Virus record (IMG/VR): IMGVR_UViG_3300028833_000058
DNA length: 64,000 nucleotides
Source: a virus
Lineage: Duplodnaviria > Caudoviricetes
Direction: 5' to 3' (one strand)
Each line of letters begins with the position of its first letter. The first letter of the stretch is position 1. Made by a program: the position numbers and the translations under genes. The notes under the pieces are model-generated. The model saw only the letters and a list, made by a program, of their open reading frames with translations. It did no database searches and was not told the origin of the DNA. Shown here piece after piece: positions 32,975 to 53,592 of the stretch.

Positions 32975-34606
32975 ATGAATCCCTTAGTTTCAGTTATTGT
33001 TCCAGTCTATAACAGTGAAAAATATTTAAAACAATGTTTAGACAGTATTGTAAACCAAACTCTAAAGAATATTGAGATTATTTGTGTAGATGATGGCTCA
33101 ACAGATAATTCTTTGGCCATTTTATATGATTATGCACAAAGAGATAGTAGGTTTTCAGTATTAAAGCAAAACAATTTACACGCTGGGGTAGCTAGAAATA
33201 CTGGATTGCTAAACGCAAAAAGCGATTATGTAATATTTTTAGATTCTGATGATTTTTTTGGGCTAACCATGCTAGAAGAGATGTATAACAAGATAGTGGA
33301 AGATGATTCAGATGTTGCCGTTTGTGGATTTTATAAATACATAAATGAAAGTAAGATAATAAAAAATAGACCTATCAATAAATGTTTTGCAGAAAAATCA
33401 CCTTTTAGTCCGTTAGATTTAGGTGTTGATGCATTTAATTTTACGAATCCAGCACCGTGGACAAAATTGTTTAGAAAAAGTGTGTTTTTAAACAACAACA
33501 TAAGATTTGAAGATTATATTAGTTGTAATGATTTAACTTGTATAATTCTTGCCTTAGCTTGTTGTACTAAAATAAGTATTGTTGATAAAATGTTTGTCTA
33601 CTATCGTGCGAATCAAAAAACAAATATTACGGCTAACAGAAATAAACATGTAGAATACGTTTTCTATTCTTTAGATAAGGCTCAAAAAGAGTTTAAGAGA
33701 TTAGGTATATACGCTCAATTTGAAAAAGCTTTCTTACAACGAGCTAAGAATTCAATGAGGTACGAACTTTCTTTATGTTCTGAGGATGATAAAAACAAAT
33801 ATCTTATGATTGGAAAAGAAATATTAAATGACGAGCTTTATGAGATATTGCATTTTCTTATATGTCACCCGAAAGTGTCTATAATAATTCCTGTCTATAA
33901 CAACAAAAAGTATCTTAGACAATGTTTAAATTCTGTAAGAAACCAGACATTAAGAGAGATAGAAGTTATATGTGTAAACGATTGCTCTACTGATGGTTCA
34001 CTTAAGTTATTAAAGCAGTATGAAAATTTAGATAACAGAATCCATGTTATAAATTTAGAGAAAAATAGTGGTGTAAGTTACGCAAGAAACATTGCACTAG
34101 AAAAAATATCTGGGGACTATGTTTGTTTCTTAGACAGTGATGATTTTTTAGAATTAGATTTTTGTAAACTATTGGTATCTGACATAGAGAATAAAAAATC
34201 TGATTTGTCTTGCGGTGGTCATTGCAAATATAACAAATTCAATCAAAAAATTTCAACTTGGCTACCAAAAAAGATAGTTTCTGCTAATCTTATGAACGAT
34301 ATAAATTTACTTACAAAACATAGAAATGTGACACAAAAGTTGTTCAAGACAAACATTATCAAAGAAAACAAACTTAAATTTGATACAACTTTACATTACA
34401 TGGAAGACGCTTTGTTTTTAATTCAATATCTAACTCATTGTAAAACCATTTCTGGTGTAGATAAATCTTTATATGTAGTTAGGATAAACGAACATAGTTT
34501 GTGCAGAAGTACAGAGTTCGTAGAAAGACGTAAACAAGAAAGTGAAAAAGCTAAGGCATATATTAACGACATTATATCTAAATATGAGCAAAATCGTCAT
34601 TTATAA
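32975..34606 (+). CDS. tandem double GT2 glycosyltransferase
   Basis: Two copies of VS(V/I)I(V/I)PVYN..CV(D/N)D.STD..ARN..FLDSDD..(ND/ED). Confidence 0.92.
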   Translation: MNPLVSVIVPVYNSEKYLKQCLDSIVNQTLKNIEIICVDDGSTDNSLAILYDYAQRDSRFSVLKQNNLHAGVARNTGLLNAKSDYVIFLDSDDFFGLTMLEEMYNKIVEDDSDVAVCGFYKYINESKIIKNRPINKCFAEKSPFSPLDLGVDAFNFTNPAPWTKLFRKSVFLNNNIRFEDYISCNDLTCIILALACCTKISIVDKMFVYYRANQKTNITANRNKHVEYVFYSLDKAQKEFKRLGIYAQFEKAFLQRAKNSMRYELSLCSEDDKNKYLMIGKEILNDELYEILHFLICHPKVSIIIPVYNNKKYLRQCLNSVRNQTLREIEVICVNDCSTDGSLKLLKQYENLDNRIHVINLEKNSGVSYARNIALEKISGDYVCFLDSDDFLELDFCKLLVSDIENKKSDLSCGGHCKYNKFNQKISTWLPKKIVSANLMNDINLLTKHRNVTQKLFKTNIIKENKLKFDTTLHYMEDALFLIQYLTHCKTISGVDKSLYVVRINEHSLCRSTEFVERRKQESEKAKAYINDIISKYEQNRHL

Positions 34607-35625: not shown

Positions 35626-38148
35626 ATGGCTCAAGTAGAATATAGCACAATTGTAAGAGATGTAACTTTTAATAGTAAAAGCACTTTAACAAGTGTTGAT
35701 ATAAATAGCAGACCAATACAATATGGTCTGTTTACGACTGGTTTTAGAGATTGCACAAAGTTAAAAATTGTAAAAAATTTCCCAAGCTCAATAAAAAACA
35801 TGGGTTATACTTTTTTAAATTGTATATCGTTGGAAACTATCCCTGCTATCCCTTCTGATTGTGAAAGCATGTACGGTACATTTGTAAATTGTTCAAAATT
35901 TAACTCTAAAGTCATAATACCAAACAGTGTTACAAATGTAGATGATTGTTTTAGAGGATGTGTAAGTCTAACTAAGCAACCTGGTTTAAGTAATAATATA
36001 ACAAGTCTATTTAGAACTTTTGAAAATACTGCTCTAACAAGTTTCTCAAATATACCAGACGGTGTTACTAATATGGAATGGTGCTTCAAAGAGTGTACAA
36101 AATTGGCTTCTGTATCAAATTTACCATCATCTTTAGTTAATCTGAAAGAATGTTTTAAAAATTGTACAAGTTTAACAACTATCCCAGCTATACCAGATTC
36201 TGTTACAGATTTATACAATTGTTTTTATAACTGTCCAAAATTAGCTGGTGACATTACAATTAGAAGTCCAAATGTTACACAAGTAGGTAGTTGCTTTTAT
36301 TTATCTGAATCAAGTACGATAGATAGAAATGTATTCATTAATTTAGATAGTACAACATATCAAAGTTTTATTTCATCTGGATATTCTACTACGAAAAGAA
36401 AGCATGGTGTATTACTTTTACCTTTAGATTACGAATACGTAACGTTTACAATTTTAGGTTTAGGTATAATTGATGTATCTAATGCCGTTGTCAAAGTAAC
36501 ATACGATGGAGTTGAACATACTTGTTTGAACACATTAAGTACCCATGATAATGGAGTATGCCCAAGTGGTGCATGTATGAATAATAAATTCTATTTACCT
36601 ATTCCAGCGAATAAATCCTTTACATACAGTGTTAGCTTAACTGATTATAACACAGAAACAGGAAGTGGCACAACTGGTAGTGGTAATAGGAGTCAAGATA
36701 TTCAAATAGCTTTGACACACGCTACAAAAACTTTTACTGTAAATGTAACTCCATCTGGGTCACATGTCGAGTTATATGTAGGTAGCACAAAAGTAGCTGA
36801 AGGTGATGACACAGCTTCTTACAGTTATAGCACTGGTCATATATTAGCAATGAAAATCATTTGTACAAACGCAAACTATCCTACAATACAACAATCAGTC
36901 AACTGGGATAGCAGTAATGATTATGTGAAGAATATAGATATGGTACCTGTTTCTGGTGAAGTGCTGTATGAAAGTAACACTGGTGGTCAAGTTAGTACAT
37001 TACAATTAGGTGCAAATCGTCTATATGAGATAATCTGCATAGGCGGTGGTGGTGGAAGTGGTAATAATGCTGGTACTGGTGGTGCTGGTGCTTTTTGGAA
37101 AGGAAATATAAACACAAGTAAAAGTGTTACACTTACAATGACTACTGGTTCAGGTGGACAAGCTGGTGAATCAAGAGTAGATGGTAAACCTGGTACTGCT
37201 TCTACAATTGATACTAATAGTGAAACTTCTGAGATAAAAATAACAGCAGAAGGTGGAATGGGTGGTTACACAGCGTATAACAGTCCATCAATATGGACTG
37301 GTGATAAAAAAGACCCTAGGTACCCTAATGGTTATTCAATTGGCCCAAAAGTATCTATACTTCAACATAAAAATACACTTACTGGCTTTAGTAAAACTGA
37401 ACGAAGACAAGTTAGTTGGGTAAGTGGTACTACATATGGAATGGGTGCTAATGTTAGTTTTCAGAATGGAAAACCAGGTTATATAAAAATTACATACTTA
37501 GGTGAATTAACACCAACATCAGGCGGTGCAACAGAAGTATTCAGAAGAACAACTGCTGGTAATGGTACTGTACAATTAGAAGCTGGAACATATACACTAA
37601 TTTGTGTAGGTGGCGGTGGTGGAGCTCTTTGCTACTATGACACTGGCAGTGTAGAAGAATCAACTACATCTAAATCATATAAAGCAACTGGTGGTTCTGG
37701 GTCTTACTTAAACGTTACAGTACAACTAGAAGCTGGAACATATAACTGGTCAGTTGGTGCACTAGGAACAACAAATTATTATCCAAACACAGCTACTGAT
37801 GGTGGAAATACGACATTTGGTGATTTTATCGCCTACGGTGGTCAAGCTGCTATTTTTCTTGCATCTCCTTACAATTTCGGAAACACAGGTGTAAGTGGAA
37901 CATTTGCTGAAGGTTATGGTGGTAATGTTCCAATGCTTGCCAACTCTTGTATCGGAACAACACAACTCTTTCAAGGAAACGATGGACAAGTAGATGAAGA
38001 ACTCACAACGAATCACACTTTAGCTGGTGGTGCTAGTCCATACTTTTCATATGGTAAAGGTTCTGGATTTGCAAACAATGGATTTTTTGCTGGTCCAAAT
38101 CCAAACCCAGGTACAAATGGATGTTTGATAATAATTAAATTAGATTAA
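35626..38148 (+). CDS. adhesin/tail-fibre-associated protein: BspA-like LRRs, Ig-like domains, two glycine-rich domains
   Basis: F..C..L..IP.IP repeats; IC(I/V)GGGGG twice. Confidence 0.75.
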   Translation: MAQVEYSTIVRDVTFNSKSTLTSVDINSRPIQYGLFTTGFRDCTKLKIVKNFPSSIKNMGYTFLNCISLETIPAIPSDCESMYGTFVNCSKFNSKVIIPNSVTNVDDCFRGCVSLTKQPGLSNNITSLFRTFENTALTSFSNIPDGVTNMEWCFKECTKLASVSNLPSSLVNLKECFKNCTSLTTIPAIPDSVTDLYNCFYNCPKLAGDITIRSPNVTQVGSCFYLSESSTIDRNVFINLDSTTYQSFISSGYSTTKRKHGVLLLPLDYEYVTFTILGLGIIDVSNAVVKVTYDGVEHTCLNTLSTHDNGVCPSGACMNNKFYLPIPANKSFTYSVSLTDYNTETGSGTTGSGNRSQDIQIALTHATKTFTVNVTPSGSHVELYVGSTKVAEGDDTASYSYSTGHILAMKIICTNANYPTIQQSVNWDSSNDYVKNIDMVPVSGEVLYESNTGGQVSTLQLGANRLYEIICIGGGGGSGNNAGTGGAGAFWKGNINTSKSVTLTMTTGSGGQAGESRVDGKPGTASTIDTNSETSEIKITAEGGMGGYTAYNSPSIWTGDKKDPRYPNGYSIGPKVSILQHKNTLTGFSKTERRQVSWVSGTTYGMGANVSFQNGKPGYIKITYLGELTPTSGGATEVFRRTTAGNGTVQLEAGTYTLICVGGGGGALCYYDTGSVEESTTSKSYKATGGSGSYLNVTVQLEAGTYNWSVGALGTTNYYPNTATDGGNTTFGDFIAYGGQAAIFLASPYNFGNTGVSGTFAEGYGGNVPMLANSCIGTTQLFQGNDGQVDEELTTNHTLAGGASPYFSYGKGSGFANNGFFAGPNPNPGTNGCLIIIKLD

Positions 38149-38165
38149 CTATTAGGAATAATGTA

Positions 38166-41100
38166 ATGGCAACAGGAAATACAAGTGCAAGAAGTAGAAA
38201 AGTAATTTTAGCAGACGTTGAGTTTACTGAAAATGGTTTGTATATTCCAAGTGAAGAAGTGACTGGCTTCGGTAGAGTTACTGTTGCTGTACCACCTGAC
38301 GCTAGAAGAAAACCTATTTATATAACACCTACTGCTACTAATATTGTAAGTCAACCTACTTGGGATGAATATACTGGTCCTTATGTTGACGAATACGTAA
38401 AAACAATCGGGTACAAAAAAGAAAATAGAACCGTTTATGATTTTAATAATAATTACTTAGGCACTTGTTCAATTGAAGGTGTTATAACTGATGATTCTGG
38501 TAATGTTATCGGTAAAGTTTCAAATTATCGTGTAATACGTGACGAAGATAATATAATCATAGGTTACGCAGATGACAAAAACTTTGCGTTTAATCTAGAA
38601 GATAACCAGATAGGTAAAGTATTAGGTGACAATTCAGTAATCAATGACGAAGGGGATGTCATAGGAGAAGCATCTTTTACTGAATATCTTGCTTACAATA
38701 ATAACGAGAACGAGTTTGTTGGCGTAAGAGACATAAAAGTAAGAAAGATTGGTGCATGGATAGATTCTAACATTTCTGCAGATAACATTCGTCAAGGGCA
38801 TAGTATTTTAGGTGTTGCAGGTAATGTGGTAGAGCTACTTGGAGAAGAAAGAACTGTAAATTCAAGTACTTCTACACAAACTATTACTCCTTCTAGTGGA
38901 AAAAACGCTATTACAAAAGTTACTGTAAATCCTTACACACTAGGAACAAGAACGGTTGACCCAGAGTTCGAAAGAAAAACATATTATACACCTAGTGGAT
39001 ACAATGGAATGTCTTCCTTTACAGTAAATCCAATTGATGTTCAAACTATCGTAGAAGAAGAACCGCAGTTAAAAGCAGAAAACATTAAGAAAAACGTTAG
39101 ATTGTTTGATGGTCAAATTGTAGGTACATATGATAATTATGTAGCTCCAGTCGTTCAACCTGTATCAATTTCACCAACAACCTCTCAACAGATTGTAAAT
39201 GCACCAAGTGGTGTTGATGGTTTCAATAGGGTTACTGTTGATGCTGTTACTTCCACCATTGACCCAAACATTCAAGCAAGTAACATCAAAAAAGATGTAA
39301 CAATATTGGGCGTTACAGGTACATATCGTACTGAAAATTTACAAGATAAAACTGTAGACCCACAACAATTTCTCCAAGTTGTAAGCTACGATTCAACACA
39401 ATACGATGGATTAAATTCTGTTACAGTAAACGCAGTTACGAACACTATTGATGCTAACATACAAGCTGGTAACATTAAGAAAAATGTACAAATTTTAGGT
39501 GTAACAGGTGATTATGACCCACAACCAAATATTCAAGCACCTGTTACGGTTACTCCTAGTACATTACAACAATCTGTAACTCCAGACCAAGGTTATGATG
39601 GTTTAGGTAGAGTTGATATAAATGCTGTTACATCTTCAATAGACCCAAACATCTTGGCTGAGAATATTAAGAAAAACATTGAAATTTTAGGGGTTACTGG
39701 TAGTTATGACCCTCAACCTAATTATCAAGCTTCTAAAACAGTCCAACCAGTTAGTTCTGGTGATGTTGAAGTTACAGCAGACCCAACTTATGACGCATTG
39801 CTAAAGGTTATAGTTAAAGCAGTTACAGCTTCTATTGACCCTAACATCATGCCTAAAAACATAAGAAAGAATGTGAGTATTTTAGGTGTTTTAGGTACAA
39901 TGGAGGAAGGTGGAGAACAGAAGTGGTTTGACTTTTCTGGAATTCAAAACTTTGTTGAATTGAATCAAGACGCTTTTAGTGAAGGTGGAACAGAATCTAT
40001 ATCAATCGTTATCGATAAAAATAATTATGAACTTAAAAAACTTATAGATGACACATTTCCAGCTATTAGTAACATAAATGCAGTTATGTTCAGTGAAGTT
40101 TATGGATATAACGATGAAGAAATGACTAACCCAATAACAAAACAATGCTACATTGATTTTGTTGATGGTTATATGTATCAAGATTATAGTACAACAACAT
40201 ATATACCAAATCAAATTCGCTATTTTTATTCATTTGATAACAATTATGGTGTAAATGGTTTAACAATTGGATTGGCCAATGACGATGGGTCAGCAAGGAC
40301 AATGAAACTTTATGTAATTGCTGACAGCACTAAAAATAATAAACCTATTCCTGTTCTTGTAAATGGTAATATGACTGTTAGTGATTTACCAGAAGATTAT
40401 GATGACTTTAGATATGTAAAAGACATTGAGGTTCCAGCACATGATGTATATATACCAAAATTTATAGAAAAAGATAACGTTCAATGGGTATTACGTGATG
40501 AAGATGGTATAAGAACAAAAGTAATTGAGTCAGTTGAAATTGAACCAAACAATGTTGAGGTAAGTGCTTACGATAGAGACTACGGCACACAGGATGTAGA
40601 AACAGATAGTGTGATAGGATATAGATTGAGACATTTCAACAATTTAGTTCTCAACGAAGATACATTAGTCGCTAGTCAAATAGATACAAGTAAAAATGGT
40701 ACAATTCTTATTTTAAATGATTTTGTTAAACAAGACCAAAGTTATTACTACTTTGCATTTAAGCCAAGTGCATACAATGGAAGTAATACATACCATACAG
40801 TTGCTAAATGTGAAGGTTTATTCCAAGTAGGTTTTTACAGAAATAGTAGTGATTCTTATTACAGACCAGCTTGGGTTTCATCTTGGTCATCTGCTAGTGC
40901 TGGAACTTGGAGCAACAACAGTACGTCTAGTTACAGAATGTACAATGGAACGACATATTATTACAGAATTTATGTAAACGGTACAACTACGATTATAGAT
41001 TGGTCTAACAATGGAACAACCTGGGTAACAATGGGAACTGTTACGAGTGAGTATATTGACCCATTGAACACAAATCAAGTTGAAATATATGCCAAAAGTG

Positions 41101-42668
41101 GACCAAATACAAAACTTTGTACGGATGGTATTTATGTAGCAGATAATTCAAATAATATTTTATACTCTGTATTAGATGATAAAATAGCAAAGAAAACAAG
41201 TCATAACATAGTTCCGTTAGACGATAATAATCTTTTTGTGCAACGTGCAGATGATAGAGTAAGTCCTCGCTACATTGGAACAGAAGATATAAGATTTGTA
41301 AGTTATAATAAAACAACTAAACTTTTAACTACTGGACAAGGTGGTTACATAGAATTACAAGATGAATGGAAGCCAGGAAATAAACCTTGGCAAGTCAATG
41401 TACACTTGAAATATTATTCTCGTACAGAATATACGACACACATTGTAAGTTGGAATGGTGGTACAAATGCAAGAAATGTATTCTGGTTTTACAACAATCA
41501 ACTACAAGGACGAATATTTAAATCAGCAAGTTCAACTATTTTTGATGGAAGACTTAGTAGCTACAATTTTGTAAATGGCCAAGATTATTATATACAAATG
41601 GGTTGGAATACCACTACATATTATGTTCAAGTTGCTACAGACCCAAATTTTGCAAATTTACTTATAGATTATCAACACCATAGTTCAGATGCGACATATT
41701 GTTCAGATACAAAATTAGAAATATGCAACCATGGCAAAAGAGATTATGGCTCACCAGATTATCTTTATTTAGATGAATACACAAATGTCATGATAGATGA
41801 TGAAGTTATATGGAAGCCAGCTAACGAAGAATTATGTGGGAATCTTGTTAATTACGATGACACTGATGGATTAGCAGATACTTTAGATGCTTATTTAGTT
41901 AGTAAACAAGGAAACAAAGTTATTTCAAATACCAAAGTGATTGGTGATATTAAAATAGATAATGATTTTGTTGCCAGCAGATTTACGCATGGTAGTTTCA
42001 TGAAAGTGGATACTTTTTATCCAGCTTCTGGTGACACTTGGGAAATTTGTATTAAAACCACAACAAGTGTAAATGTAACTAGAAATCAATATTTCTTTGG
42101 CAATTACATTGATAATTATAGCACACCACAGTTGTGTATAGATGGTTCAAAGTTACACTTATACTTAAGTTCAAATGGGTCCTCTTGGAATATTGCTAAT
42201 AACGCAGCTTCAACGTTAACAGTAGAACCAAATACAGAATATGTTATAAAGTTATATTTTAATGGTACAGCTTATAAAGTTGATGTTAATGATACAAATT
42301 ATATAACAGTAACATCTAGTACATCTATATATTCTGTAGGTAAACCTTGGGCAATAGGTGTAGATTGGGTTAACGGAGCTTATCCTGGTTACATAGATTT
42401 AAATGACAGCTATATCAAAGTTAACAATAATTTTGTATGGAAGCCAGAATATAAAATTATAGACACTTACGATTGGATATTTACAAAAGATTCAACTTGG
42501 TCTTATCAAGGGTTAACAAATTTAGGTAAAAAAGGCACAGTTGTGATAGGTGACCATACTTATTTTGATTGGGATTACAACCAATGTAAGTGGATTGGAA
42601 GTAAAAAAGTTATCTTAAATGTAAACGACCCTGATGGTATATTATATACAGAAGTAATAGAAGGTTAA
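38166..42668 (+). CDS. long tail fibre protein with about 62-aa repeats and lectin-like (LamG/ConA-type) modules
   Basis: Repeats of ID(P/S/A)NI...NIKK.V.ILGV.G; LSSNGSSW and G.IDL..YIK.N..W motifs. Confidence 0.8.
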   Translation: MATGNTSARSRKVILADVEFTENGLYIPSEEVTGFGRVTVAVPPDARRKPIYITPTATNIVSQPTWDEYTGPYVDEYVKTIGYKKENRTVYDFNNNYLGTCSIEGVITDDSGNVIGKVSNYRVIRDEDNIIIGYADDKNFAFNLEDNQIGKVLGDNSVINDEGDVIGEASFTEYLAYNNNENEFVGVRDIKVRKIGAWIDSNISADNIRQGHSILGVAGNVVELLGEERTVNSSTSTQTITPSSGKNAITKVTVNPYTLGTRTVDPEFERKTYYTPSGYNGMSSFTVNPIDVQTIVEEEPQLKAENIKKNVRLFDGQIVGTYDNYVAPVVQPVSISPTTSQQIVNAPSGVDGFNRVTVDAVTSTIDPNIQASNIKKDVTILGVTGTYRTENLQDKTVDPQQFLQVVSYDSTQYDGLNSVTVNAVTNTIDANIQAGNIKKNVQILGVTGDYDPQPNIQAPVTVTPSTLQQSVTPDQGYDGLGRVDINAVTSSIDPNILAENIKKNIEILGVTGSYDPQPNYQASKTVQPVSSGDVEVTADPTYDALLKVIVKAVTASIDPNIMPKNIRKNVSILGVLGTMEEGGEQKWFDFSGIQNFVELNQDAFSEGGTESISIVIDKNNYELKKLIDDTFPAISNINAVMFSEVYGYNDEEMTNPITKQCYIDFVDGYMYQDYSTTTYIPNQIRYFYSFDNNYGVNGLTIGLANDDGSARTMKLYVIADSTKNNKPIPVLVNGNMTVSDLPEDYDDFRYVKDIEVPAHDVYIPKFIEKDNVQWVLRDEDGIRTKVIESVEIEPNNVEVSAYDRDYGTQDVETDSVIGYRLRHFNNLVLNEDTLVASQIDTSKNGTILILNDFVKQDQSYYYFAFKPSAYNGSNTYHTVAKCEGLFQVGFYRNSSDSYYRPAWVSSWSSASAGTWSNNSTSSYRMYNGTTYYYRIYVNGTTTIIDWSNNGTTWVTMGTVTSEYIDPLNTNQVEIYAKSGPNTKLCTDGIYVADNSNNILYSVLDDKIAKKTSHNIVPLDDNNLFVQRADDRVSPRYIGTEDIRFVSYNKTTKLLTTGQGGYIELQDEWKPGNKPWQVNVHLKYYSRTEYTTHIVSWNGGTNARNVFWFYNNQLQGRIFKSASSTIFDGRLSSYNFVNGQDYYIQMGWNTTTYYVQVATDPNFANLLIDYQHHSSDATYCSDTKLEICNHGKRDYGSPDYLYLDEYTNVMIDDEVIWKPANEELCGNLVNYDDTDGLADTLDAYLVSKQGNKVISNTKVIGDIKIDNDFVASRFTHGSFMKVDTFYPASGDTWEICIKTTTSVNVTRNQYFFGNYIDNYSTPQLCIDGSKLHLYLSSNGSSWNIANNAASTLTVEPNTEYVIKLYFNGTAYKVDVNDTNYITVTSSTSIYSVGKPWAIGVDWVNGAYPGYIDLNDSYIKVNNNFVWKPEYKIIDTYDWIFTKDSTWSYQGLTNLGKKGTVVIGDHTYFDWDYNQCKWIGSKKVILNVNDPDGILYTEVIEG

Positions 42669-42683
42669 TATTGGAGAAATTAA

Positions 42684-44969
42684 ATGGTATCTAAAACAGT
42701 ACAAGCCAACGTTGGAGATAGCGTAAACTATAAAGTTATAAAAGACGGATACAAAACAGTTACTTCTAGTATTCCTATTACAAGTAGTATGCCTAATGTA
42801 ACAACATTTGATTTAGAGACATCATCTGTTATACACAATCCACAACTAAACTATTCTATTGATACCAGTAAAAATTGTGCTCCGATTATAACTTTCAACG
42901 ATAATGTTGTAACACCAGATGACACAGAAATAACAACGAATAAATATGTATTAGCACCTTATGGTAAAGATTATTTAGTCATAGATAATCAACAAAACGA
43001 TAATTTTATAAGGTCTGGTAATGTTAGAATAGACGAAAATGGTTTTACGAATATGTCAAGTTCTGCTTGTATAATTTTAGAGGATAGACTTGAGAATTTC
43101 AACACGTTTGAAATTAAAATGAAGATAAAAACTGATTCTGATATTACTACAAACCAGATATATTTTTGTGACAAAGAACATCTTAGTACATGTTCAGTTG
43201 CGTTAAATATTTATCAATCTAAGTTTAGAATATATTTAAGTTCAAACGGGTCTTCTTGGGATATAACAAATGGGCTTAATGGTACTTATACAGCATTGGC
43301 TAACACTTGGTATTACGTCAAATTAGTATACAATGGTACAAATTATGTTTTTAGTTATTCTTTAGATGATGAAACTTATGTACCAGATATAACTGTAAAT
43401 AACAATAATAAAGTCGTAGGTTTTATTCCATGTTTAGGTTCATGGTATACTTCTGGTGGTTATTTTAAGGGGAATATAGACTTAAACCAAGTATACATTA
43501 AAAAAGATAATGATATATTCTGGAGACCTACTTGGAATAAACTTTACAACAATTATAACGTTCATGGTACTTTACTTATAAAGAATGGCATAACTCAAGA
43601 AGCTTGTACTAGTAGTAATTATCTAGAAACGATTCCAAGAGATTTTTCAGCATCTATTTCTTCTTCTGACACATGGGAATGGGTATTTAAACTTGAAGAA
43701 TATATCCCTAATTCTGAAACCATACAAGTTATATATACAGCTGCTAGGTCATACGAAACTAAGATTTGTATCAAAAACCATTACGTTGAATTTTCATTAG
43801 GTAACAACGGTAGTAGTTATCCAGTACTTTTGTCTGGTCAAACTCAATTACAACAAGGTAATAGTTACTGGATAAAAGTAGAATTTACTGGTTCAAGATA
43901 CAGTGTTTATTTAAGTACAGATGGTATCAATTATACATTAGATTCTTACGCTGATAGTACTACACCTATGACATACAATTCTTCTGACAATTGGACCATT
44001 GGTTACAATAGGGTGAATAATTATTATTACCTAATGACCAGTAAGTTAAATCTAAACGAATGTTATATAAAAATAAACGGAAAAACATGGTGGAATGGTA
44101 TGGCCACTGATTACATTAATCCAAAAATAGCTTTAAACGGGGCAATATCAATTAATACTGATTACTATACGAAAGGTTTTTCAAGTGTAAATTATTGTTC
44201 ATCTAACATAGATTTGACTGGATATGATACATTCGAAATATACATGAGAATACACACTTTGGGTACAGCCCCAGACAATGGTGTTTTCTTTAGTAACAAT
44301 AACACTACTAACGCATCACCTTTTAGATTAGAATCTGATTGGGGACTACGCTCTTGGTGTAATGCCACTGGTTCTATAGGTAATACAAAACTAAGTGGCA
44401 ATCAAGATTATTGGATAAAAGGATATTCAAATGGTACGACTTGGTATTTGTATAGTAAATTATACGAAAACGAATCTTTAGATGAGATAATCGATGTACA
44501 AGATTGGACATTGTCTACATCTACAACAGCTAGTTATATGATTACAAGTGGAATAAATAACTTTATTTTCGGAAGAAACACCGATACTTGGGCTGGGCAA
44601 TGTTTCAATGGTGGTTTTTACTTAAACGACCTGTTGATTAGGAAAAATGACACAGTTTTACTACAAGGTGTTAAACAAATTGGTGAATATCTGCCAGGTA
44701 TTTTAAACCCAGAATATATTGACACTGGCGACCAGGTTACATTAAATCTATATGATGTTGAAACAAATGACAGATATCTTGTCATAAATGATACAAGAAA
44801 TGTTAATGTAGAAGGTAAGAAATTTGTTGAATACGATGGACAAATAACAATACCATCACATATGTTATCAATTTATGATGAAACCACAAAAATATGGGAA
44901 AAATATAAAAATGTAACGTTAGTTGTAAATAACAACGATACAACAATATACACAGAAGGTAATAGTTAA
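42684..44969 (+). CDS. tail fibre/receptor-binding protein with three lectin-like modules
   Basis: Same module motifs as neighbours; GGAG RBS. Confidence 0.75.
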   Translation: MVSKTVQANVGDSVNYKVIKDGYKTVTSSIPITSSMPNVTTFDLETSSVIHNPQLNYSIDTSKNCAPIITFNDNVVTPDDTEITTNKYVLAPYGKDYLVIDNQQNDNFIRSGNVRIDENGFTNMSSSACIILEDRLENFNTFEIKMKIKTDSDITTNQIYFCDKEHLSTCSVALNIYQSKFRIYLSSNGSSWDITNGLNGTYTALANTWYYVKLVYNGTNYVFSYSLDDETYVPDITVNNNNKVVGFIPCLGSWYTSGGYFKGNIDLNQVYIKKDNDIFWRPTWNKLYNNYNVHGTLLIKNGITQEACTSSNYLETIPRDFSASISSSDTWEWVFKLEEYIPNSETIQVIYTAARSYETKICIKNHYVEFSLGNNGSSYPVLLSGQTQLQQGNSYWIKVEFTGSRYSVYLSTDGINYTLDSYADSTTPMTYNSSDNWTIGYNRVNNYYYLMTSKLNLNECYIKINGKTWWNGMATDYINPKIALNGAISINTDYYTKGFSSVNYCSSNIDLTGYDTFEIYMRIHTLGTAPDNGVFFSNNNTTNASPFRLESDWGLRSWCNATGSIGNTKLSGNQDYWIKGYSNGTTWYLYSKLYENESLDEIIDVQDWTLSTSTTASYMITSGINNFIFGRNTDTWAGQCFNGGFYLNDLLIRKNDTVLLQGVKQIGEYLPGILNPEYIDTGDQVTLNLYDVETNDRYLVINDTRNVNVEGKKFVEYDGQITIPSHMLSIYDETTKIWEKYKNVTLVVNNNDTTIYTEGNS

Positions 44970-44986
44970 TTTAGGAAGTAAACACA

Positions 44987-47900
44987 ATGACACAAAAGAC
45001 TATAAAAGCTATTTATCAAAAACCTGTTACTTACAAACTTATACGTGATGGGTATAAGACAGTAACAGATAGTTTTACACCAGATGATAATACACCATCT
45101 ATAATGAATTTAGCTACACCTTCTGAAGTGTATAGTTCAAATTTACAATATACAGTGGACACAAGTTTAGATGGTGAACCAATTTTAAATTTTGATTCGT
45201 TTATTTCTCCTGACAACGAAACAGTAGAAAGTGCTCAATATTGTTACGCTCCCAAAGGAAGAGACTATAATTACACAATATGGAATCCAGAAGCAACTAT
45301 TTATGATAATTTTAACGCTACTGGTAATCCATCTATATCTGATGACGGTATATTCACAAATTTAAATCATTCAAATTGTTTGATTACAAAAACAAATTTT
45401 GCTCCAGGTAATTATAGTTGGGAGGTTCAAACAAAAGTTAAAATCGGAAATGATGTTACAAGTGAACTTGCTATCTTTGATAATCCTGTTGACCAAAGAA
45501 GTTTTAGAATAGGTCTTGCTGGTACAGTTAGAGATAGATGGCAACTGTTAGTTTCAAACGGTAGTAGTTGGATAACGACTTCACAGCATTATGGAAGCTA
45601 TGCTGTAATTGCAAACACTGTTTATTGGATTAAAGCTGGCTTCGATGGAATAAATACTTATTACCTTGATTATTCTTTAGATGGTGAACATTACACAAGA
45701 GATGTTCAATACACTTCAACAGTAAAAATACAACAAGATTTACCAGTTTACATGAAAGGCACAGCTGCGACTTATGTGGACTTATCATGTACTTGTATAA
45801 AAATAGATAATGTGAATTGGTGGACTCCATATAGAATTGATGGTAGGTGGGAAGATGCTCAAATACCTGGAATGTTAGATGAATCTGTTACAACAGATAA
45901 CTGGAATCAAAGTCAAAATTATAAACTTTATCAATTAAAACAACAAGATAACTCAAGTAATTTACAATTAACATCAAATAGTATTACAAATGAAGGTCAA
46001 AAATATAACCAGTATATAGACCAGATAACTATTCCAGCTAGAGATTACAAATGGTATTATCATAATGTATCCACAAAATTATACGATAATTATGACATAA
46101 TTGGTTCACCAAATGTTAATCCAAATACAGGTGTTATATCTGGGTTCAGTACAACTGATTATATAACTATAACTAAAGGTTTTTCAACAGCTTTACCATA
46201 TAAAATTATAGTAAAATTTACAATAAGTTCGTCATTTCCACAATATTGTCGTATAATCGCTGGTGCTGGTGGAGATTATTCGATTATTCCTTTTTATTTT
46301 AATTATGCTAATCTTGGAGCTTATGGAAGCTCTAATGGTTCTTCTTGGAATATGTTCTCTCATCACCACATAGCTGACCTTTCTACTAACACGACATATA
46401 CAATGATGTTTGAATTTACTGGTTCAGCATATATATGGTATCAAAAAGTTAACGGAACATGGATTGAATTAACAAGAATAACGTCAAATGAAGTAACTGT
46501 ATCTCCAAGTGGTTTTGATATCGGTAGATGTGATGGTAGTAGTTCTTGGTCTGGTTCAATTGATTTGTCAGAATACACAATTGAAGTTAACGGAAATATA
46601 TTTTGGTCACCAATATCCAATGAAGACAAATGGATAGCAAATAAATCAATTTACGATTATTCTGTTACTGGTTTATATGCAGATACATTAGATTTTACAA
46701 AATCATACATCGGTGTAAATAATTCAGAATACCATAAATATTTAAACCCAGATGTTTGTTTAATGCCTATTAATGGTGGAGAAACAATAGAGGGTAAAAA
46801 TCAGTATTTGATTCCAAAAGTTGTAAAAACGTTAAACGGAAATAGTTTTGGTGACATAGTTTTTGATGATGATACAGGTATCGTAAGTGGTTTTTCTAGC
46901 ACAACAGGTATAACTTTACCAGAAGCATTTCCGTCAACAGTATCTAATTTTGATATGATATTTAAAGGAAGTATTAGTAATTTCGATGATGATAATGTTT
47001 TACTTGGTTACGCTAACACAGATGAGGGTTATATCGGTGTAACTAGTAGAGATACACATTCTTTTTCATATTGGTTTGGTTCTTGGACACAAGGACAAAC
47101 TACAATTAACTTCAATACATATTATTGGTTTAGAGTTATTTACAATGGTTCAAGTACCAAAGGATATATACTTTTAGACAATGGGTACAATTTAGACAAT
47201 TTACCATCTTTATCCCAATGGTCAGAAGAATGGACTCTTGATAATAATAAATTTAATGGAAGATTACTTAATTTAGGTTATAATTTTGCAACAACAAGTG
47301 AGCATTGGACAGGTAACATTGATTTAGATAATTCTGTAATTAGAATAAACGGTTCAAATTGGTGGACAGGTATCAAGTACAATTCAGATGTAATTAAAGT
47401 TGGTAATGCAAACTTTAATGGTGCTACGTCAAATTTTAGGTCAATTTCTGGTTGTTTATACAACTACAGAGATGATGGTCAGCAACATAATTTTGACGTT
47501 TATTACGATTCTAATTATACTCAACCTATCTTAGTAGGGTCTGGAGAAATTTATTCACAAGGAACGAAAGTAGATACTATTACTATACCTGAACATAAAC
47601 TCTGGACTTATGAAAACGGTGGTGTATGGACAGAACGTGGGTATGAACCAGAATCTAGTGGTGAATCTCAATTTGTTGAAGAATCTTATACACCAACACC
47701 TACTCCAGCTGTAGTTATTCCAGAAATAACTTTGGGTTATAACGTAATTGTCAATTTAACTGGAACAACAAGTTGTTTTGAAGAATTTACAATTGATGGT
47801 GACACATATACGTTAAGCGATTTTGTAAATAACACATTAAGAATAACGTTAGCTGCAAATCAAACTTATGCATGGAGTGCAACAGCACAACCTACTTATA

Positions 47901-48010
47901 CAGTTTCTCCTTCTAATGGTAGTTTTTTATTGGATGATGATGTCACAATCAATATTCAATGCCAACCACAACAATATTTCATTACCCCAGGTGATGAGCC
48001 AACAGAATAA
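44987..48010 (+). CDS. tail fibre/receptor-binding protein with three lectin-like modules and C-terminal Ig-like domain
   Basis: N-terminus homologous to that of 42684 gene; SNGSSW modules. Confidence 0.75.
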   Translation: MTQKTIKAIYQKPVTYKLIRDGYKTVTDSFTPDDNTPSIMNLATPSEVYSSNLQYTVDTSLDGEPILNFDSFISPDNETVESAQYCYAPKGRDYNYTIWNPEATIYDNFNATGNPSISDDGIFTNLNHSNCLITKTNFAPGNYSWEVQTKVKIGNDVTSELAIFDNPVDQRSFRIGLAGTVRDRWQLLVSNGSSWITTSQHYGSYAVIANTVYWIKAGFDGINTYYLDYSLDGEHYTRDVQYTSTVKIQQDLPVYMKGTAATYVDLSCTCIKIDNVNWWTPYRIDGRWEDAQIPGMLDESVTTDNWNQSQNYKLYQLKQQDNSSNLQLTSNSITNEGQKYNQYIDQITIPARDYKWYYHNVSTKLYDNYDIIGSPNVNPNTGVISGFSTTDYITITKGFSTALPYKIIVKFTISSSFPQYCRIIAGAGGDYSIIPFYFNYANLGAYGSSNGSSWNMFSHHHIADLSTNTTYTMMFEFTGSAYIWYQKVNGTWIELTRITSNEVTVSPSGFDIGRCDGSSSWSGSIDLSEYTIEVNGNIFWSPISNEDKWIANKSIYDYSVTGLYADTLDFTKSYIGVNNSEYHKYLNPDVCLMPINGGETIEGKNQYLIPKVVKTLNGNSFGDIVFDDDTGIVSGFSSTTGITLPEAFPSTVSNFDMIFKGSISNFDDDNVLLGYANTDEGYIGVTSRDTHSFSYWFGSWTQGQTTINFNTYYWFRVIYNGSSTKGYILLDNGYNLDNLPSLSQWSEEWTLDNNKFNGRLLNLGYNFATTSEHWTGNIDLDNSVIRINGSNWWTGIKYNSDVIKVGNANFNGATSNFRSISGCLYNYRDDGQQHNFDVYYDSNYTQPILVGSGEIYSQGTKVDTITIPEHKLWTYENGGVWTERGYEPESSGESQFVEESYTPTPTPAVVIPEITLGYNVIVNLTGTTSCFEEFTIDGDTYTLSDFVNNTLRITLAANQTYAWSATAQPTYTVSPSNGSFLLDDDVTINIQCQPQQYFITPGDEPTE

Positions 48011-48108
48011 CAAATAGTGGCTTAAAACTTAAAAAAAGGGGCTTTTGTACGAAAAAATTAAGTTCAAATAGATATATTAAAAAGTTTATACAATTGGAGA
48101 ATTTTTAA

Positions 48109-50427
48109 ATGTCAACTTTACAATATAACGGAAATGAATATAACATTTTATACATTGACGGTAACATAGGTGCTAGTGCTGGAGATGGTTCTACGCCAGC
48201 TGGAGCTTTAGCCACAATACCAAGTCCTTTAGTAGATAAAACTTGTTATATCATAAGACGACATGGAACAGATGAAACAGTTAATGTAGACATGCCACAG
48301 TCTTGGTATGAAGATTTGAAATACATAATGTTCCTTGGATTCCCTAAAGCTGATGACCCAATGTATAATCTTATGGAACCAAGTGCTAAAGCTGCTTGGA
48401 GTTCTGATACTGGTACTTATGCTAGAATAAGATGTAACATGGCAAGTTATACGACAAATAACACAAGTGTTACAGCGATGAATGATACAAACAATAAAAC
48501 AGTCTTCAAGACAAGTTCTATTCGTAATTTTTATTCTGCTAACTGTTATTTTTATAGAGATGGTGAAGGTGGAAACGTAGGAGGTGACGGAAGAGGAACT
48601 GATTATATTTTTGGCTTTGACTATAGTTCAAGATTTGCTGACATTACTTTTAACAATTGTAAATTTGGTTATGCCCAATATAACCTTGAAAATGATGATT
48701 ATATTAACAACAACTCTGATATTGCTACAGATACCAGTAAATATCCTCAACACAAATGTTGTGCTTATGTTGGTATAAACAATTGTAATACAATATGTTT
48801 TAACAACTGTGTTATAAACCATGTATATCTAAACGCTAATACTTATTATAGAAGTAATTGGAGCTCTGGTGCTGGAAAGGTCATATACATAAGTAACGCA
48901 AACAAAACAATTTTTTCAAATATACAGTATAACATATTGTACAGAAACAATTATGATAACACAAACGCTGATTATCAATATTACGCAACACGTATATATG
49001 TAACTGGTGACAGAAGTAGAGTGAATTTTACAAACATTAAGTTGAACAAAATTTATACTAGTACAAACTCAGTTGTTAGCACAGGAGCTATATATGTTTT
49101 TGGGTACGATGTGAAATTCGATGATGTAAAAGTTAATCAAAAAATCATGGGTGGTGGAACTTTAAGTTCTTGGACAAGTATAATGGCTAACGACAAATAT
49201 TTTCACATCGATGGAAGAAACTCTTTAGAAGCAACAAACTTTTATTGTAATCTTTCTCAAAGTAATTTGAAAATGGCACCAGTCCTTGGACTTTGGACTC
49301 AAATGGCTAACACTGGTAATCCAAATAATAAAGTTCAAAACATTTACATACATTTAGACGATGCTGGTTCATTGACCCAAACCTATGCTGCATTTCATTT
49401 TGAAATATATAGAGGAAAATGGAATACAAGTGGTATAGAAAATGTTGATGGTAACAGTAGTTGGGATACTGGTTATGAAGGTAATCAACAAACTAATGCT
49501 AAAGCTTTCATAGCCACAAATGTCGCTGTTTATACTAAAAATAGTACAGATTATGGTATTTATTTAGTAAGAACTGGAGCAAAGGTAAATAGATTAGAGG
49601 GAAGAGCATATCTTGGTTCTGCTACAATGGATGTAAAGAAACATTATGTACATATTTCTACTAGTAGAGGTCTTAATGTTTATGGTGATAGTTATTATAA
49701 ATGTGATGATTTTGAAGCCAATTTAAACTATCCTAATTATAATGGTACGGTCCTCGTAACATGGCAACCACAAAGTAAAACATCTATATACATAAATAAG
49801 TCAAATTGTCTTTTGACAGATGAAAACTTTATAACACCAATTTATAATGCCAGTTCAAATAACTCTTTTGTTTGTCCGAACTATATTAAAACTGGTCAAT
49901 TTTTCCAAAGAAATGAGGTATGTTTTGCTAAATCTTGGAATACTGTAAGAACTGGTTCAAACTCTCAAGGTTCTTTAAGGTTTAACAACAATTCAGCTGA
50001 TATTAATAATAATTCTTATCCTTTGATTGTAGGACAAGACCCTTATTCTGGTATTCAAATTGTACCTGCTTCTACTGGTAAAAAGATATTAACAGCTTAT
50101 ATTGCCACAAAGAACATGGATGCTACTGAATTTGGATACACAGGAAGAATTGGTATACACGTAAACTGTCCAGAAAAATATACAGATTATTTTGACGTAG
50201 AAAAACAGAATATAAAAATTCATGAATTTACATCAGAAGCTAACGGTTGGCAATCTGATAACTCAACTTGGTCTGGTGACACTAACTTAAATACCTTCAA
50301 ATGTGAAATACCAATCGAAGTATTTACATTAGAAGAACCAATTGACGTTAAAATTTGGTTTAACTGGTATTCTGTTTCTGGTTACGTATATGTTGACCCA
50401 GATTTTAAAGTTGTTGATGTAACATAA
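48109..50427 (+). CDS. putative tailspike/beta-helix-like virion protein
   Basis: 772 aa, N/Y/T-rich, FNNC repeats, variant motif AGTTCAA at 48061. Confidence 0.55.
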   Translation: MSTLQYNGNEYNILYIDGNIGASAGDGSTPAGALATIPSPLVDKTCYIIRRHGTDETVNVDMPQSWYEDLKYIMFLGFPKADDPMYNLMEPSAKAAWSSDTGTYARIRCNMASYTTNNTSVTAMNDTNNKTVFKTSSIRNFYSANCYFYRDGEGGNVGGDGRGTDYIFGFDYSSRFADITFNNCKFGYAQYNLENDDYINNNSDIATDTSKYPQHKCCAYVGINNCNTICFNNCVINHVYLNANTYYRSNWSSGAGKVIYISNANKTIFSNIQYNILYRNNYDNTNADYQYYATRIYVTGDRSRVNFTNIKLNKIYTSTNSVVSTGAIYVFGYDVKFDDVKVNQKIMGGGTLSSWTSIMANDKYFHIDGRNSLEATNFYCNLSQSNLKMAPVLGLWTQMANTGNPNNKVQNIYIHLDDAGSLTQTYAAFHFEIYRGKWNTSGIENVDGNSSWDTGYEGNQQTNAKAFIATNVAVYTKNSTDYGIYLVRTGAKVNRLEGRAYLGSATMDVKKHYVHISTSRGLNVYGDSYYKCDDFEANLNYPNYNGTVLVTWQPQSKTSIYINKSNCLLTDENFITPIYNASSNNSFVCPNYIKTGQFFQRNEVCFAKSWNTVRTGSNSQGSLRFNNNSADINNNSYPLIVGQDPYSGIQIVPASTGKKILTAYIATKNMDATEFGYTGRIGIHVNCPEKYTDYFDVEKQNIKIHEFTSEANGWQSDNSTWSGDTNLNTFKCEIPIEVFTLEEPIDVKIWFNWYSVSGYVYVDPDFKVVDVT

Positions 50428-51603: not shown

Positions 51604-53592
51604 TTATTGTTGGCTAGAAGTTGTAACACTAACTGTTGTACCAGTAGCCATTACGTAAGTATTAAGATGAATAACTTCTGCAGTATAGCTTGGCCAAATG
51701 TAAATATCAATTACCATTTGGTTACTATTGATTATTGTAGGAGTGTTATTCGTTTCATCACATACAACCTTATATTGTTGAATACCTTCGGCAGCAAGAA
51801 TTTGTTGCAAGAATGTACCGAACTGCATTTCAACTTGAAGTCTCTCGTAAGCTGTATTATTTTCAAACAAGTGAAATCTTGCAGCGTCACGAAGAACTGT
51901 TTCAATGTAAATAATTGTACGAGCTACATTGATACGGTCTAAAGCAGATGGCTTTCTTTGTAAAGTCCTTTGACCCCAGTTAATATAACCAGTACCATTT
52001 TCTCTAATAATACAGTTAATTTGATTATCTGCATAGAGGATACCACCAGTTGTGATATCATAATATTCTGTCAATCCAGTAGGAGATACAACAGATGATG
52101 TTAATATACCACGGTTTAAACCAGCAGGAGCAACCCATGGGTCAGAAGCACCCATAATTTTAGCTACATAAGCTGATGGACACATGATAAAGTTTGCACG
52201 ACCTTGAACAGCATCAAATGTTCTTACCCATGGAGAGAATAAAGCTGCACGATAAGAATTAGATGTTTGCATTGTAGGTCTGAAATCATCTTTCAAATCT
52301 TCAAAATCTGTCATTGTCATCGGAACATCTAACAAGCAGAAGCAGTCACGGCGATGCTCAGCGATAGCAATCATTTTATCTTGATAACTTGTATTACCAG
52401 CTGTAACATAACCACTGTTCATAAGCAATGAAACAGTAATTTGTGAGCGGTCCATGAAAGCATCCCAAGCAGCAACTAAATCTTTATATTTAGCTTCTTC
52501 TGATTCCCAAGTACCACTTTGACCACCAACCAAAGGTAACATACTAACATTCTCTGGAATAGCAACTTCATCAGGGAAAGCATCGTCATACATTTTATCA
52601 TTAACGAAAACTTGAATGAAGTTTGAAGTACCATTGATTACATCTTCAACGTACATTGAGTTACCATAGTTATCAATAGATGGATACAATGTACAATATT
52701 CAAAGAATTCTAGCAAGTTGTTTGAATTACTTTCGTATACAGATACACTAAATGTTGTTTCATTGTCATCTGGATAACGACCAATTCTTTGCTTATTAAC
52801 AGATTCTGTGAAATCATATTCACCATCTATGTAATATGTAATGACTGTATATCCAGTATTTTCTTCAACATCAACTGAATAAGCTTTGAAGATACCGTTT
52901 AAAGCATGGTTAGAACAATTTTTAATAACGATAGGGTCAGATGCTTTAATTTCAAGTGCAGCACTTTCTGCAACTACCATTTTAACAACTGATTGAGCTA
53001 AACCACTTGTACTTTCTTCGTTAGTATTGACAGGTTTAACTTCTATACTATTTAATAATGGATATGCTCTATAAGTATTAATTGTACTATCTGCCACAGA
53101 TACATAAAATTGACGATAGTTCGGGTCTGTAGCAGCTACAACAAATGCATTGTCATAATCATCATCTAAGAATAATCCTGTCGGAGAGCCAACATCACGT
53201 AATACTTCAGCACCGTGTATAATGTTATAGGAATATCCTTTTTCTAATCTTTCAGCTTCAGAACCTTTAACTCTTACACTATTTGATGCCCATTTAGCAT
53301 CTGTGTCTGATGGATTAGAAGGGTCTCCAATAGGAACAACACGAACGAAGTAGTTTTCATTGATTGTTTCTGAAGCTACTGCTAATGAATAACCAGCGTA
53401 ACCATATTTTGAAGACAATCTACCGAATTTTTGTGTATAGTCTTGAGCAGAAGTAACCAACGTAGGTTTTAAGATAGGACCGAATTCAGCTTCACCAACG
53501 AATGCGCAAGCAGTAGTAGCGTTGGTAGATACAATTTCGGAACGGTCTATTACATTTGCGTAGACTCCTGGAAATTTATAATTTGTTGCCAT
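51604..53592 (-). CDS. contractile tail sheath protein
   Basis: FPGVY..D.S, GEAEFGP, PWVAPAGLNRG, NWGQRTL, RINVAR, FENN, VVCDETNNT. Confidence 0.95.
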   Translation of the reverse strand: MATNYKFPGVYANVIDRSEIVSTNATTACAFVGEAEFGPILKPTLVTSAQDYTQKFGRLSSKYGYAGYSLAVASETINENYFVRVVPIGDPSNPSDTDAKWASNSVRVKGSEAERLEKGYSYNIIHGAEVLRDVGSPTGLFLDDDYDNAFVVAATDPNYRQFYVSVADSTINTYRAYPLLNSIEVKPVNTNEESTSGLAQSVVKMVVAESAALEIKASDPIVIKNCSNHALNGIFKAYSVDVEENTGYTVITYYIDGEYDFTESVNKQRIGRYPDDNETTFSVSVYESNSNNLLEFFEYCTLYPSIDNYGNSMYVEDVINGTSNFIQVFVNDKMYDDAFPDEVAIPENVSMLPLVGGQSGTWESEEAKYKDLVAAWDAFMDRSQITVSLLMNSGYVTAGNTSYQDKMIAIAEHRRDCFCLLDVPMTMTDFEDLKDDFRPTMQTSNSYRAALFSPWVRTFDAVQGRANFIMCPSAYVAKIMGASDPWVAPAGLNRGILTSSVVSPTGLTEYYDITTGGILYADNQINCIIRENGTGYINWGQRTLQRKPSALDRINVARTIIYIETVLRDAARFHLFENNTAYERLQVEMQFGTFLQQILAAEGIQQYKVVCDETNNTPTIINSNQMVIDIYIWPSYTAEVIHLNTYVMATGTTVSVTTSSQQ

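Follow-up and report, generated by a model that had tools for sequence, protein, structure and literature searches.

A candidate split PEGA-type joint between consecutive tail-fibre proteins of an uncultured gut jumbo phage

The consecutive genes for gp34, gp35, gp36 and gp37 of phage T4 encode consecutive segments of one jointed structure, the long tail fibre. In donor-strand pili (chaperone-usher, type V and archaeal Tafi), the strand missing from the acceptor subunit is the last one, and it is supplied by an N-terminal extension of the donor. In the solved split nozzle of Pseudomonas podophage A1002, the missing strands of tail protein domains are supplied by a separately encoded neighbour (PMC13730344). 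The end-to-end joining of multi-protein fibres, and the exchange of their segments without breaking assembly, are poorly understood beyond a few model phages. Here, we analysed a 64,000-nucleotide stretch of the IMG/VR virus record IMGVR_UViG_3300028833_000058 (Duplodnaviria; Caudoviricetes; the whole stretch is hereafter called the window), in which three consecutive putative fibre genes, P0002, P0003 and P0004, appear to carry the two parts of one PEGA/Ig-like sandwich on either side of two gene boundaries: a short C-terminal "tail" on the upstream protein and an N-terminal "head" on the downstream one. With a probability of roughly 60%, consecutive fibre proteins are joined by a naturally split PEGA/PF25641-type sandwich, the tail of one protein completing the head of the next.

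The T4 long tail fibre resembles this locus in that gene order would parallel segment order, and the tail sheath protein of the window is distantly gp18-like (24%). On the other hand, the fibre bodies here are strings of lectin-like modules, and no similarity to gp34, gp35, gp36 or gp37 was found with PHROGs, Pfam or tblastn of P0003 against GenBank phages. To our knowledge, the proposed joint chemistry has no description for T4. As in donor-strand pili, the strands of a neighbour would complete a sandwich and give an ordered, non-covalent linear polymer. However, the polarity would be reversed, with an acceptor lacking the first two strands and a C-terminal two-strand hairpin as donor, and the links here are large, unlike proteins encoded in order. 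No pilus chaperone or usher family was found in scans of seven of the ten row genes (five with Pfam and PHROGs, two with PHROGs only), and we regard the resemblance to pili as an analogy of mechanism only.

The A1002 nozzle has a trans-completed domain between neighbouring phage tail proteins, a feature that the fibre joint would share, but its fold is a beta-propeller/platform, it belongs to another part of the virion, and it forms a single pair rather than a repeated fibre connector (PMC13730344). Trans-completed domains are already known from these pili and this nozzle; no description of a split PEGA-type joint in phage fibres was found in the literature. The families to which the head is homologous are PEGA (PF08308) and Head_fiber_dimeric (PF25641), and in unsplit orthologues of the fibre proteins the corresponding place is taken by a PEGA domain that Pfam scores as significant. 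In these families the unit is whole in one chain and often tandem, whereas here it would be interrupted in the loop that follows strand 2 and shared by two polypeptides, and neither half reaches the Pfam threshold. We take the name of PF25641 to come from gp29, the dimeric head-fibre protein of crassvirus PhicrAss001.

Homology of head and tail to one PEGA-type unit

Both junctions lie on the plus strand, as do all the fibre features given below. P0002 (1500 residues, 38166-42668) ends in tail 1, its last 22 residues (SKKVILNVNDPDGILYTEVIEG, 42600-42665), the proposed donor hairpin with sandwich strands 1 and 2. Junction 1 (42666-42683) contains a TAA stop (42666-42668), a GGAGA ribosome-binding site (RBS) and a second in-frame TAA (42681-42683), followed by the ATG of P0003 at 42684. 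Head 1 comprises residues 1-46 of P0003 (42684-42821, beginning MVSKTVQANVGDSVNYKVIKDGYKTVT) and is a truncated PEGA/PF25641-like unit with putative strands 3-7. P0003 (761 residues, 42684-44969) ends in tail 2, again its last 22 residues (KYKNVTLVVNNNDTTIYTEGNS, 44901-44966), and junction 2 (44967-44986) holds a TAA (44967-44969) and an AGGAAG RBS ahead of the ATG of P0004 at 44987. Because this ATG lies 20 nt from the first base of the stop, P0004 is out of frame with P0003. Head 2, residues 1-46 of P0004 (44987-45124, beginning MTQKTIKAIYQKPVTYKLIRDGYKTVT), is likewise a truncated unit of this type. Coordinates and translations thus confirm what an earlier reading of the letters (the sequence-only reading) had described, namely tails on the 1500- and 761-residue proteins, heads on the genes that follow, and a real stop, RBS and ATG at each junction, with two TAA codons in frame at the first and a change of frame at the second. 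The protein ends quoted there fell in the correct region but stopped short of the termini, as P0002 has four residues after YTE and P0003 three more.

P0003 and P0004 are homologous end to end. Their heads are identical at 15 of 27 residues, as against 24% identity across the whole proteins, and both head and tail were found again in more than 100 database relatives. Since the heads are far more alike than the bodies, and since the pair recurs in relatives and at all 18 junctions described below, the shared head and tail are not a matter of chance.

A head profile (A1, built from 46 heads) was searched against 1.84 billion representative proteins and retrieved about 55 clusters at E < 1e-12, in every one of which the match began at residue 1. 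The weaker matches were proteins with 3-14 internal copies, which are tandem PF25641/PEGA units with a period of 64-68 residues, and the head corresponds to only the last ~45 residues of each unit. Against a hidden Markov model (HMM) of intact units (71 units, 72 positions), the heads of the window and four relatives matched at positions 28-61 of 72 with 20-38 bits, indicating that some 20-25 residues of the domain are missing from the N-terminus of the head. The Pfam model of PF25641 agrees in register: in a sub-threshold match, its positions 22-48 (of 61) pair with residues 3-29 of the head. As judged from these profiles, the head and the C-terminal two thirds of the ~60-70-residue PEGA/PF25641 sandwich units are homologous. 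The window heads score at most 15.6 bits against PF25641 (cut-off 30) and so stay below the gathering score of the family. They do not form a complete 60-70-residue unit in one polypeptide, and the absent N-terminal hairpin is found on the preceding protein. No solved relative was found in PDB sequence searches with the head profile and intact PEGA. Two database proteins, P0178 (2423 residues) and P0222 (1924 residues), contain 8-10 tandem units of ~167 residues, each with a head-like PEGA segment; no Pfam family matched these units, and they may represent an undescribed repeat architecture.

The tail was placed by position. P0050, P0039, P0077 and P0078 have the same P0003-type body and pre-tail module, followed by an intact PEGA domain at the tail position; in P0050 this domain reaches 30 bits (Pfam cut-off 20.8) at residues 745-801. 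Alignment A7 sets the tails of 15 split orthologues, column by column, on the ~20 residues with which this PEGA domain begins (LPVTINYNIPEGATITINENTVTS), and the following part of the intact domain (SPYITDEIGELVYKVNKEGYEEYTGQI) aligns with the head. By this alignment, the tail is positionally homologous to the first hairpin of the intact PEGA in unsplit orthologues. When profiles were slid against the intact hairpin, the tail ranked first in both families, out of 113 windows for P0003 (z 3.6) and out of 79 for P0002 (z 3.5). An AlphaFold2 (AF2) model of P0050:640-830, with a mean predicted local distance difference test score (pLDDT) of 65, placed tail-equivalent strands at 739-744, 750-753 and 756-758 and head-equivalent strands at 763-766, 771-776, 783-787 and 795-799, from which the gene break would lie in the loop after the second strand. 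Foldseek of this model against the PDB returned only weak matches of ~75 residues, to transthyretin-like carboxypeptidase domains, and none at E <= 0.001. That tail plus head read like one PEGA/Ig-like sandwich is thus well supported by homology and by the co-occurrence described below.

The sequence-only reading had also placed apparently intact copies in the 840-residue protein (P0001) and at the end of the 1007-residue protein (P0004). In these two proteins only sub-threshold matches were found, and the clearly intact copies are those of the orthologues P0050, P0039, P0077 and P0078. The possible complete sandwich at the C-terminus of P0004 (47723-47977) follows a pre-tail-like ITIPEH..W motif and has weak sequence support. 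Two possible PEGA-like domains in P0001 (36424-36945) lie between its LRR_5 and glycine-rich parts.

Recurrence of tail and head pairs in related genomes

Co-occurrence was counted in ten genomes, the window and the relatives L001-L009. A gene ending in a tail was followed by a gene with a head in 18 of 18 cases, at a spacing of -1 to 26 nt. The junction stops were TAA, TAG or TGA, often doubled, all three relative frames occurred, and each downstream gene had its own RBS and ATG. Fibre genes without a tail were followed by a gene without a head in nine of nine cases (the last fibre gene in the nine genomes read that far), and the first fibre gene lacked a head in all ten. The chains contain two links in L006, L007 and L009, three in the window and L001-L005, and four in L008.

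At least three tail/head subtypes could be distinguished: YT.VIEN with M(T/V)SK, IYTEGNI with MTQKTIK, and ITMKEIEE or LLVEED with ARGYYDF or KAGKYDLY. The divergent tails of the third subtype (..ITMKEIEE and ..LLVEED) occur at exactly the two junctions with divergent heads (..ARGYYDF.. and ..KAGKYDLY..). The pairs at the first and second joints are distinct subtypes, each conserved separately; this would suit an order code, with orthology as a confounding factor. A clade-wide set of mutually specific split-sandwich connectors, which as an assembly code would dictate how two to four different subunits are ordered in one fibre, is put forward as a tentative idea that we hold to be rather doubtful. 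If it were true, whole links, a 187-residue adaptor among them, could be inserted, deleted or exchanged in the course of evolution, and the connectors would constitute a natural, orthogonal, non-covalent protein-joining system. The protein in question (L008:10275-10838, between two fibre genes) has a divergent head, a tail of the canonical type (..TITLSVDNDDTTIYTEVE) and little else, and resembles a minimal adaptor link.

The invariant head residues (Y, K, G, Y, K, T) are encoded by synonymous codons that differ between genomes, and no DNA repeat common to both window junctions was found. This indicates conservation at the protein level, and a DNA-level recombination box as the cause of the conservation was rejected on the same two grounds. 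Recombination at conserved modules does occur, with P0050 (941 residues) as a case. This protein is a natural hybrid, of which the first ~640 residues are like P0047 (a second fibre gene) and the C-terminal ~280 residues are nearly identical to P0039 (a third gene; comparison with L002:10001-15118). It looks like the product of a deletion between homologous pre-tail modules that removed one joint and left the chain one link shorter.

Many last links of the P0004 type end in ...NTDGNLVLTEYTGNAQDITLPNPEL (P0073, P0076, P0082, P0087-P0089, P0094, P0101, P0104, P0113, P0115 and P0119-P0121). In L004:12275-16896, 14 nt separate a last link with this end from a downstream gene for a 438-residue LRR_5 protein. 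The NTDGNLVLTEYTGNAQDITLPNPEL motif is similar to the strand that usually stands ahead of BspA-type leucine-rich repeats, and this end may be a second kind of split joint.

Proposed joint and alternative explanations

In the proposed mechanism, P0002, P0003 and P0004 would follow one another as segments of a single long tail fibre, that of a T4-like jumbo myophage. The two proteins meeting at a joint would be made by separate translation, the end of the upstream one supplying the first hairpin (~20 residues, strands 1-2) and the start of the downstream one the other ~45 residues (strands 3-7), with the break point in the loop that connects strands 2 and 3. The tail hairpin would slot into the head of the next subunit and complete the core of its unfinished sandwich, joining the proteins non-covalently in gene order, from P0002 to P0003 to P0004. 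The tail/head subtypes, which differ at joints 1 and 2, would probably set this order and block self-polymerisation of P0003. With one type of connector at all joints, links could be gained, lost or swapped. From homology, co-occurrence and one weak complex prediction, we infer a physical joint in which strands of the tail make the head sandwich complete. We likewise infer the order code, the stoichiometry and a receptor-binding role, the last of which is suggested by the lectin-like domains and the gene context. If the proposal is true, a conserved split domain of 20 plus 45 residues serving as a universal joint would answer the question of end-to-end joining in simple structural terms throughout a clade of uncultured gut jumbo phages, and would account for chains of differing length. 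Small natural peptide/domain pairs, perhaps of several orthogonal types, would then also be available for protein joining or for chimeric fibres in laboratory phage work.

The sequence-only reading had suggested a complex prediction of each C-terminus with the next N-terminus. For P0003:632-761 with P0004:1-120, each with a separate alignment, the complex score was 0.58 (runs 0.58, 0.62 and 0.42), as against 0.00 for the best of three controls; the runs shared at least 58% of their contacts and the pLDDT of the partners was at least 78. The mark set for this score was reached by 58 of 80 solved complexes and by 2 of 110 mismatched pairs. The prediction thus weakly favours pairing of the tail side with the head side. 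Chaining by strand complementation, as first suggested, would be consistent with the homology, the co-occurrence and this weak prediction. The modularity proposed in the same reading is supported by the chains of two to four links, the 187-residue adaptor and the hybrid P0050.

Several observations weigh against a split sandwich of this kind. Only 7 of the 80 solved complexes lie at scores of 0.60 or lower, together with both passing mismatches, and 0.58 therefore stands in a band in which passes are often wrong. When the tail was added to the head, the score against the intact-unit HMM rose by 0-5 bits, mostly within the range of shuffled tails (the controls were head alone and reversed, shuffled and foreign tails). 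Pfam found no PEGA match on the window heads, nor on the two conceptual fusions that were scanned, one being junction 1 read through and the other a tail-plus-head sequence composed for junction 2. In an AF2 single-chain model of the junction 1 read-through (block alignment), the mean pLDDT was 49.7 and that of the tail 25-43, and the tail was left undocked; at such low confidence the model argues neither way. No canonical tail-plus-head fusion in one chain was found among proteins of up to 3805 residues. The search for fused homologues suggested by the sequence-only reading was therefore negative in its strict form, and what it yielded were the unsplit orthologues with intact PEGA at the tail position; P0244 (2280 residues) has internal PEGA-like units between lectin-like bodies at 14-18 bits, below Pfam support. 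Finally, in the distant L010, the 2406-residue P0151 has a head-like start, while the end of the upstream gene looks helical and carries no tail. In this locus (L010:1853-11249), P0151 overlaps a downstream gene whose N-terminus resembles a complete PEGA-like unit, and the joint may be organised differently in this lineage.

Some of these points would also be expected if the split were the fossil of a gene fission, with the subunits still chained but joined through other surfaces, such as the pre-tail and post-head modules, the tail folding back on its own protein and the head being stable as a five-stranded sheet. The pre-tail (..ITIP.H..W) and post-head modules are indeed about as conserved as tail and head, the tail contributes little to the domain HMM score and stays undocked in the single-chain model, and terminal proteins stop right after the pre-tail module without harm. 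A vestigial tail, however, would not keep its hairpin pattern and length in paralogues and in fibre bodies of only ~30-40% identity, nor be missing exactly where no head comes next, nor diverge together with the head it precedes; we consider this explanation unlikely. Quite improbable in our view is a branched arrangement, in which the head would be a common docking domain that places the fibres side by side on one hub or baseplate site, and the tail an unrelated cap or chaperone signal. Phages such as CBA120 and G7C do have branched receptor-binding complexes whose members share N-terminal docking domains, and the head-like start of P0151 without an upstream tail would suit such an arrangement. 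But it leaves unexplained why the head lacks precisely the hairpin found on the preceding gene and why the first gene is headless and the last one tailless in all ten genomes, and the complex prediction, weak as it is (0.58 versus 0.00), prefers tail side with head side over the controls.

The junctions themselves bear on recoding, by which read-through, frameshifting or bypass would give one long fused polypeptide with an unsplit domain. Junction 1 is in frame in the window, as are some junctions of the relatives, which is all that speaks for this explanation. The varied and often doubled stops, the spacers of -1 to 26 nt in three frames, the RBS and ATG at every junction and the lack of any conserved slippery or bypass motif at the junctions all argue against it. 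Together with heads that begin at residue 1 throughout the ~55 protein clusters, this diversity rules recoding into one polypeptide out for practical purposes.

Genomic setting of the fibre genes

The window is AT-rich (G+C ~31%) and contains phage replication genes as well as a tail sheath gene on the minus strand (51604-53592) that is ~24% identical to T4-type gp18. For the fibre proteins, the nearest relatives are encoded on metagenomic contigs of 240-250 kb, the majority of which stem from gut samples. From these relatives and the gp18-like sheath, the source phage is an uncultured jumbo myophage (~245 kb) of the gut, distantly T4-like. No relatives of the fibre genes were found in GenBank phages by megablast or by tblastn of P0003 against 50,697 records, nor was any cultured phage with these genes found in those searches. 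An IMG/VR search for the fibre genes gave one locus.

The fibre genes belong to a plus-strand row of five large genes, P0001 to P0005, extending from 35626 to 50427. P0001 (840 residues) has LRR_5 and a glycine-rich domain, and P0005, the fifth gene, encodes 772 residues. Relatives of the fibre proteins carry Laminin_G_3 matches, by which the fibre bodies can be read as strings of lectin-like modules. P0002, the first fibre gene, has no head; its C-terminal half is lectin-like (LamG-type), is related to both P0003 and P0004, and ends in tail 1. P0003, the second, is composed of a head, lectin-like modules, the pre-tail module and tail 2. P0004 (1007 residues, 44987-48010), the third fibre gene and final link of the chain, has a head and lectin-like modules but no tail.

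The middle of P0002 (38850-39900) consists of five to six tandem repeats of ~58 residues (..GYDGLGRVDINAVTSSIDPNILAENIKKNIEILGVTGSY..), which are detectable both in the translation and as the DNA repeat families D2, D3, D6 and D7. Just upstream of the fibre row in L003, an IS605 OrfB/TnpB-like gene (Cas12f1-like_TNB; L003:4875-6044) lies on the opposite strand. In the window, a double family 2 glycosyltransferase (GT2) gene (32975-34606) occupies the late operon just upstream of the fibre genes. The arrangement of GT2 gene and fibre row is kept in L001, L004 and L008, and a possible role of this gene is glycosylation of the fibre or the virion.

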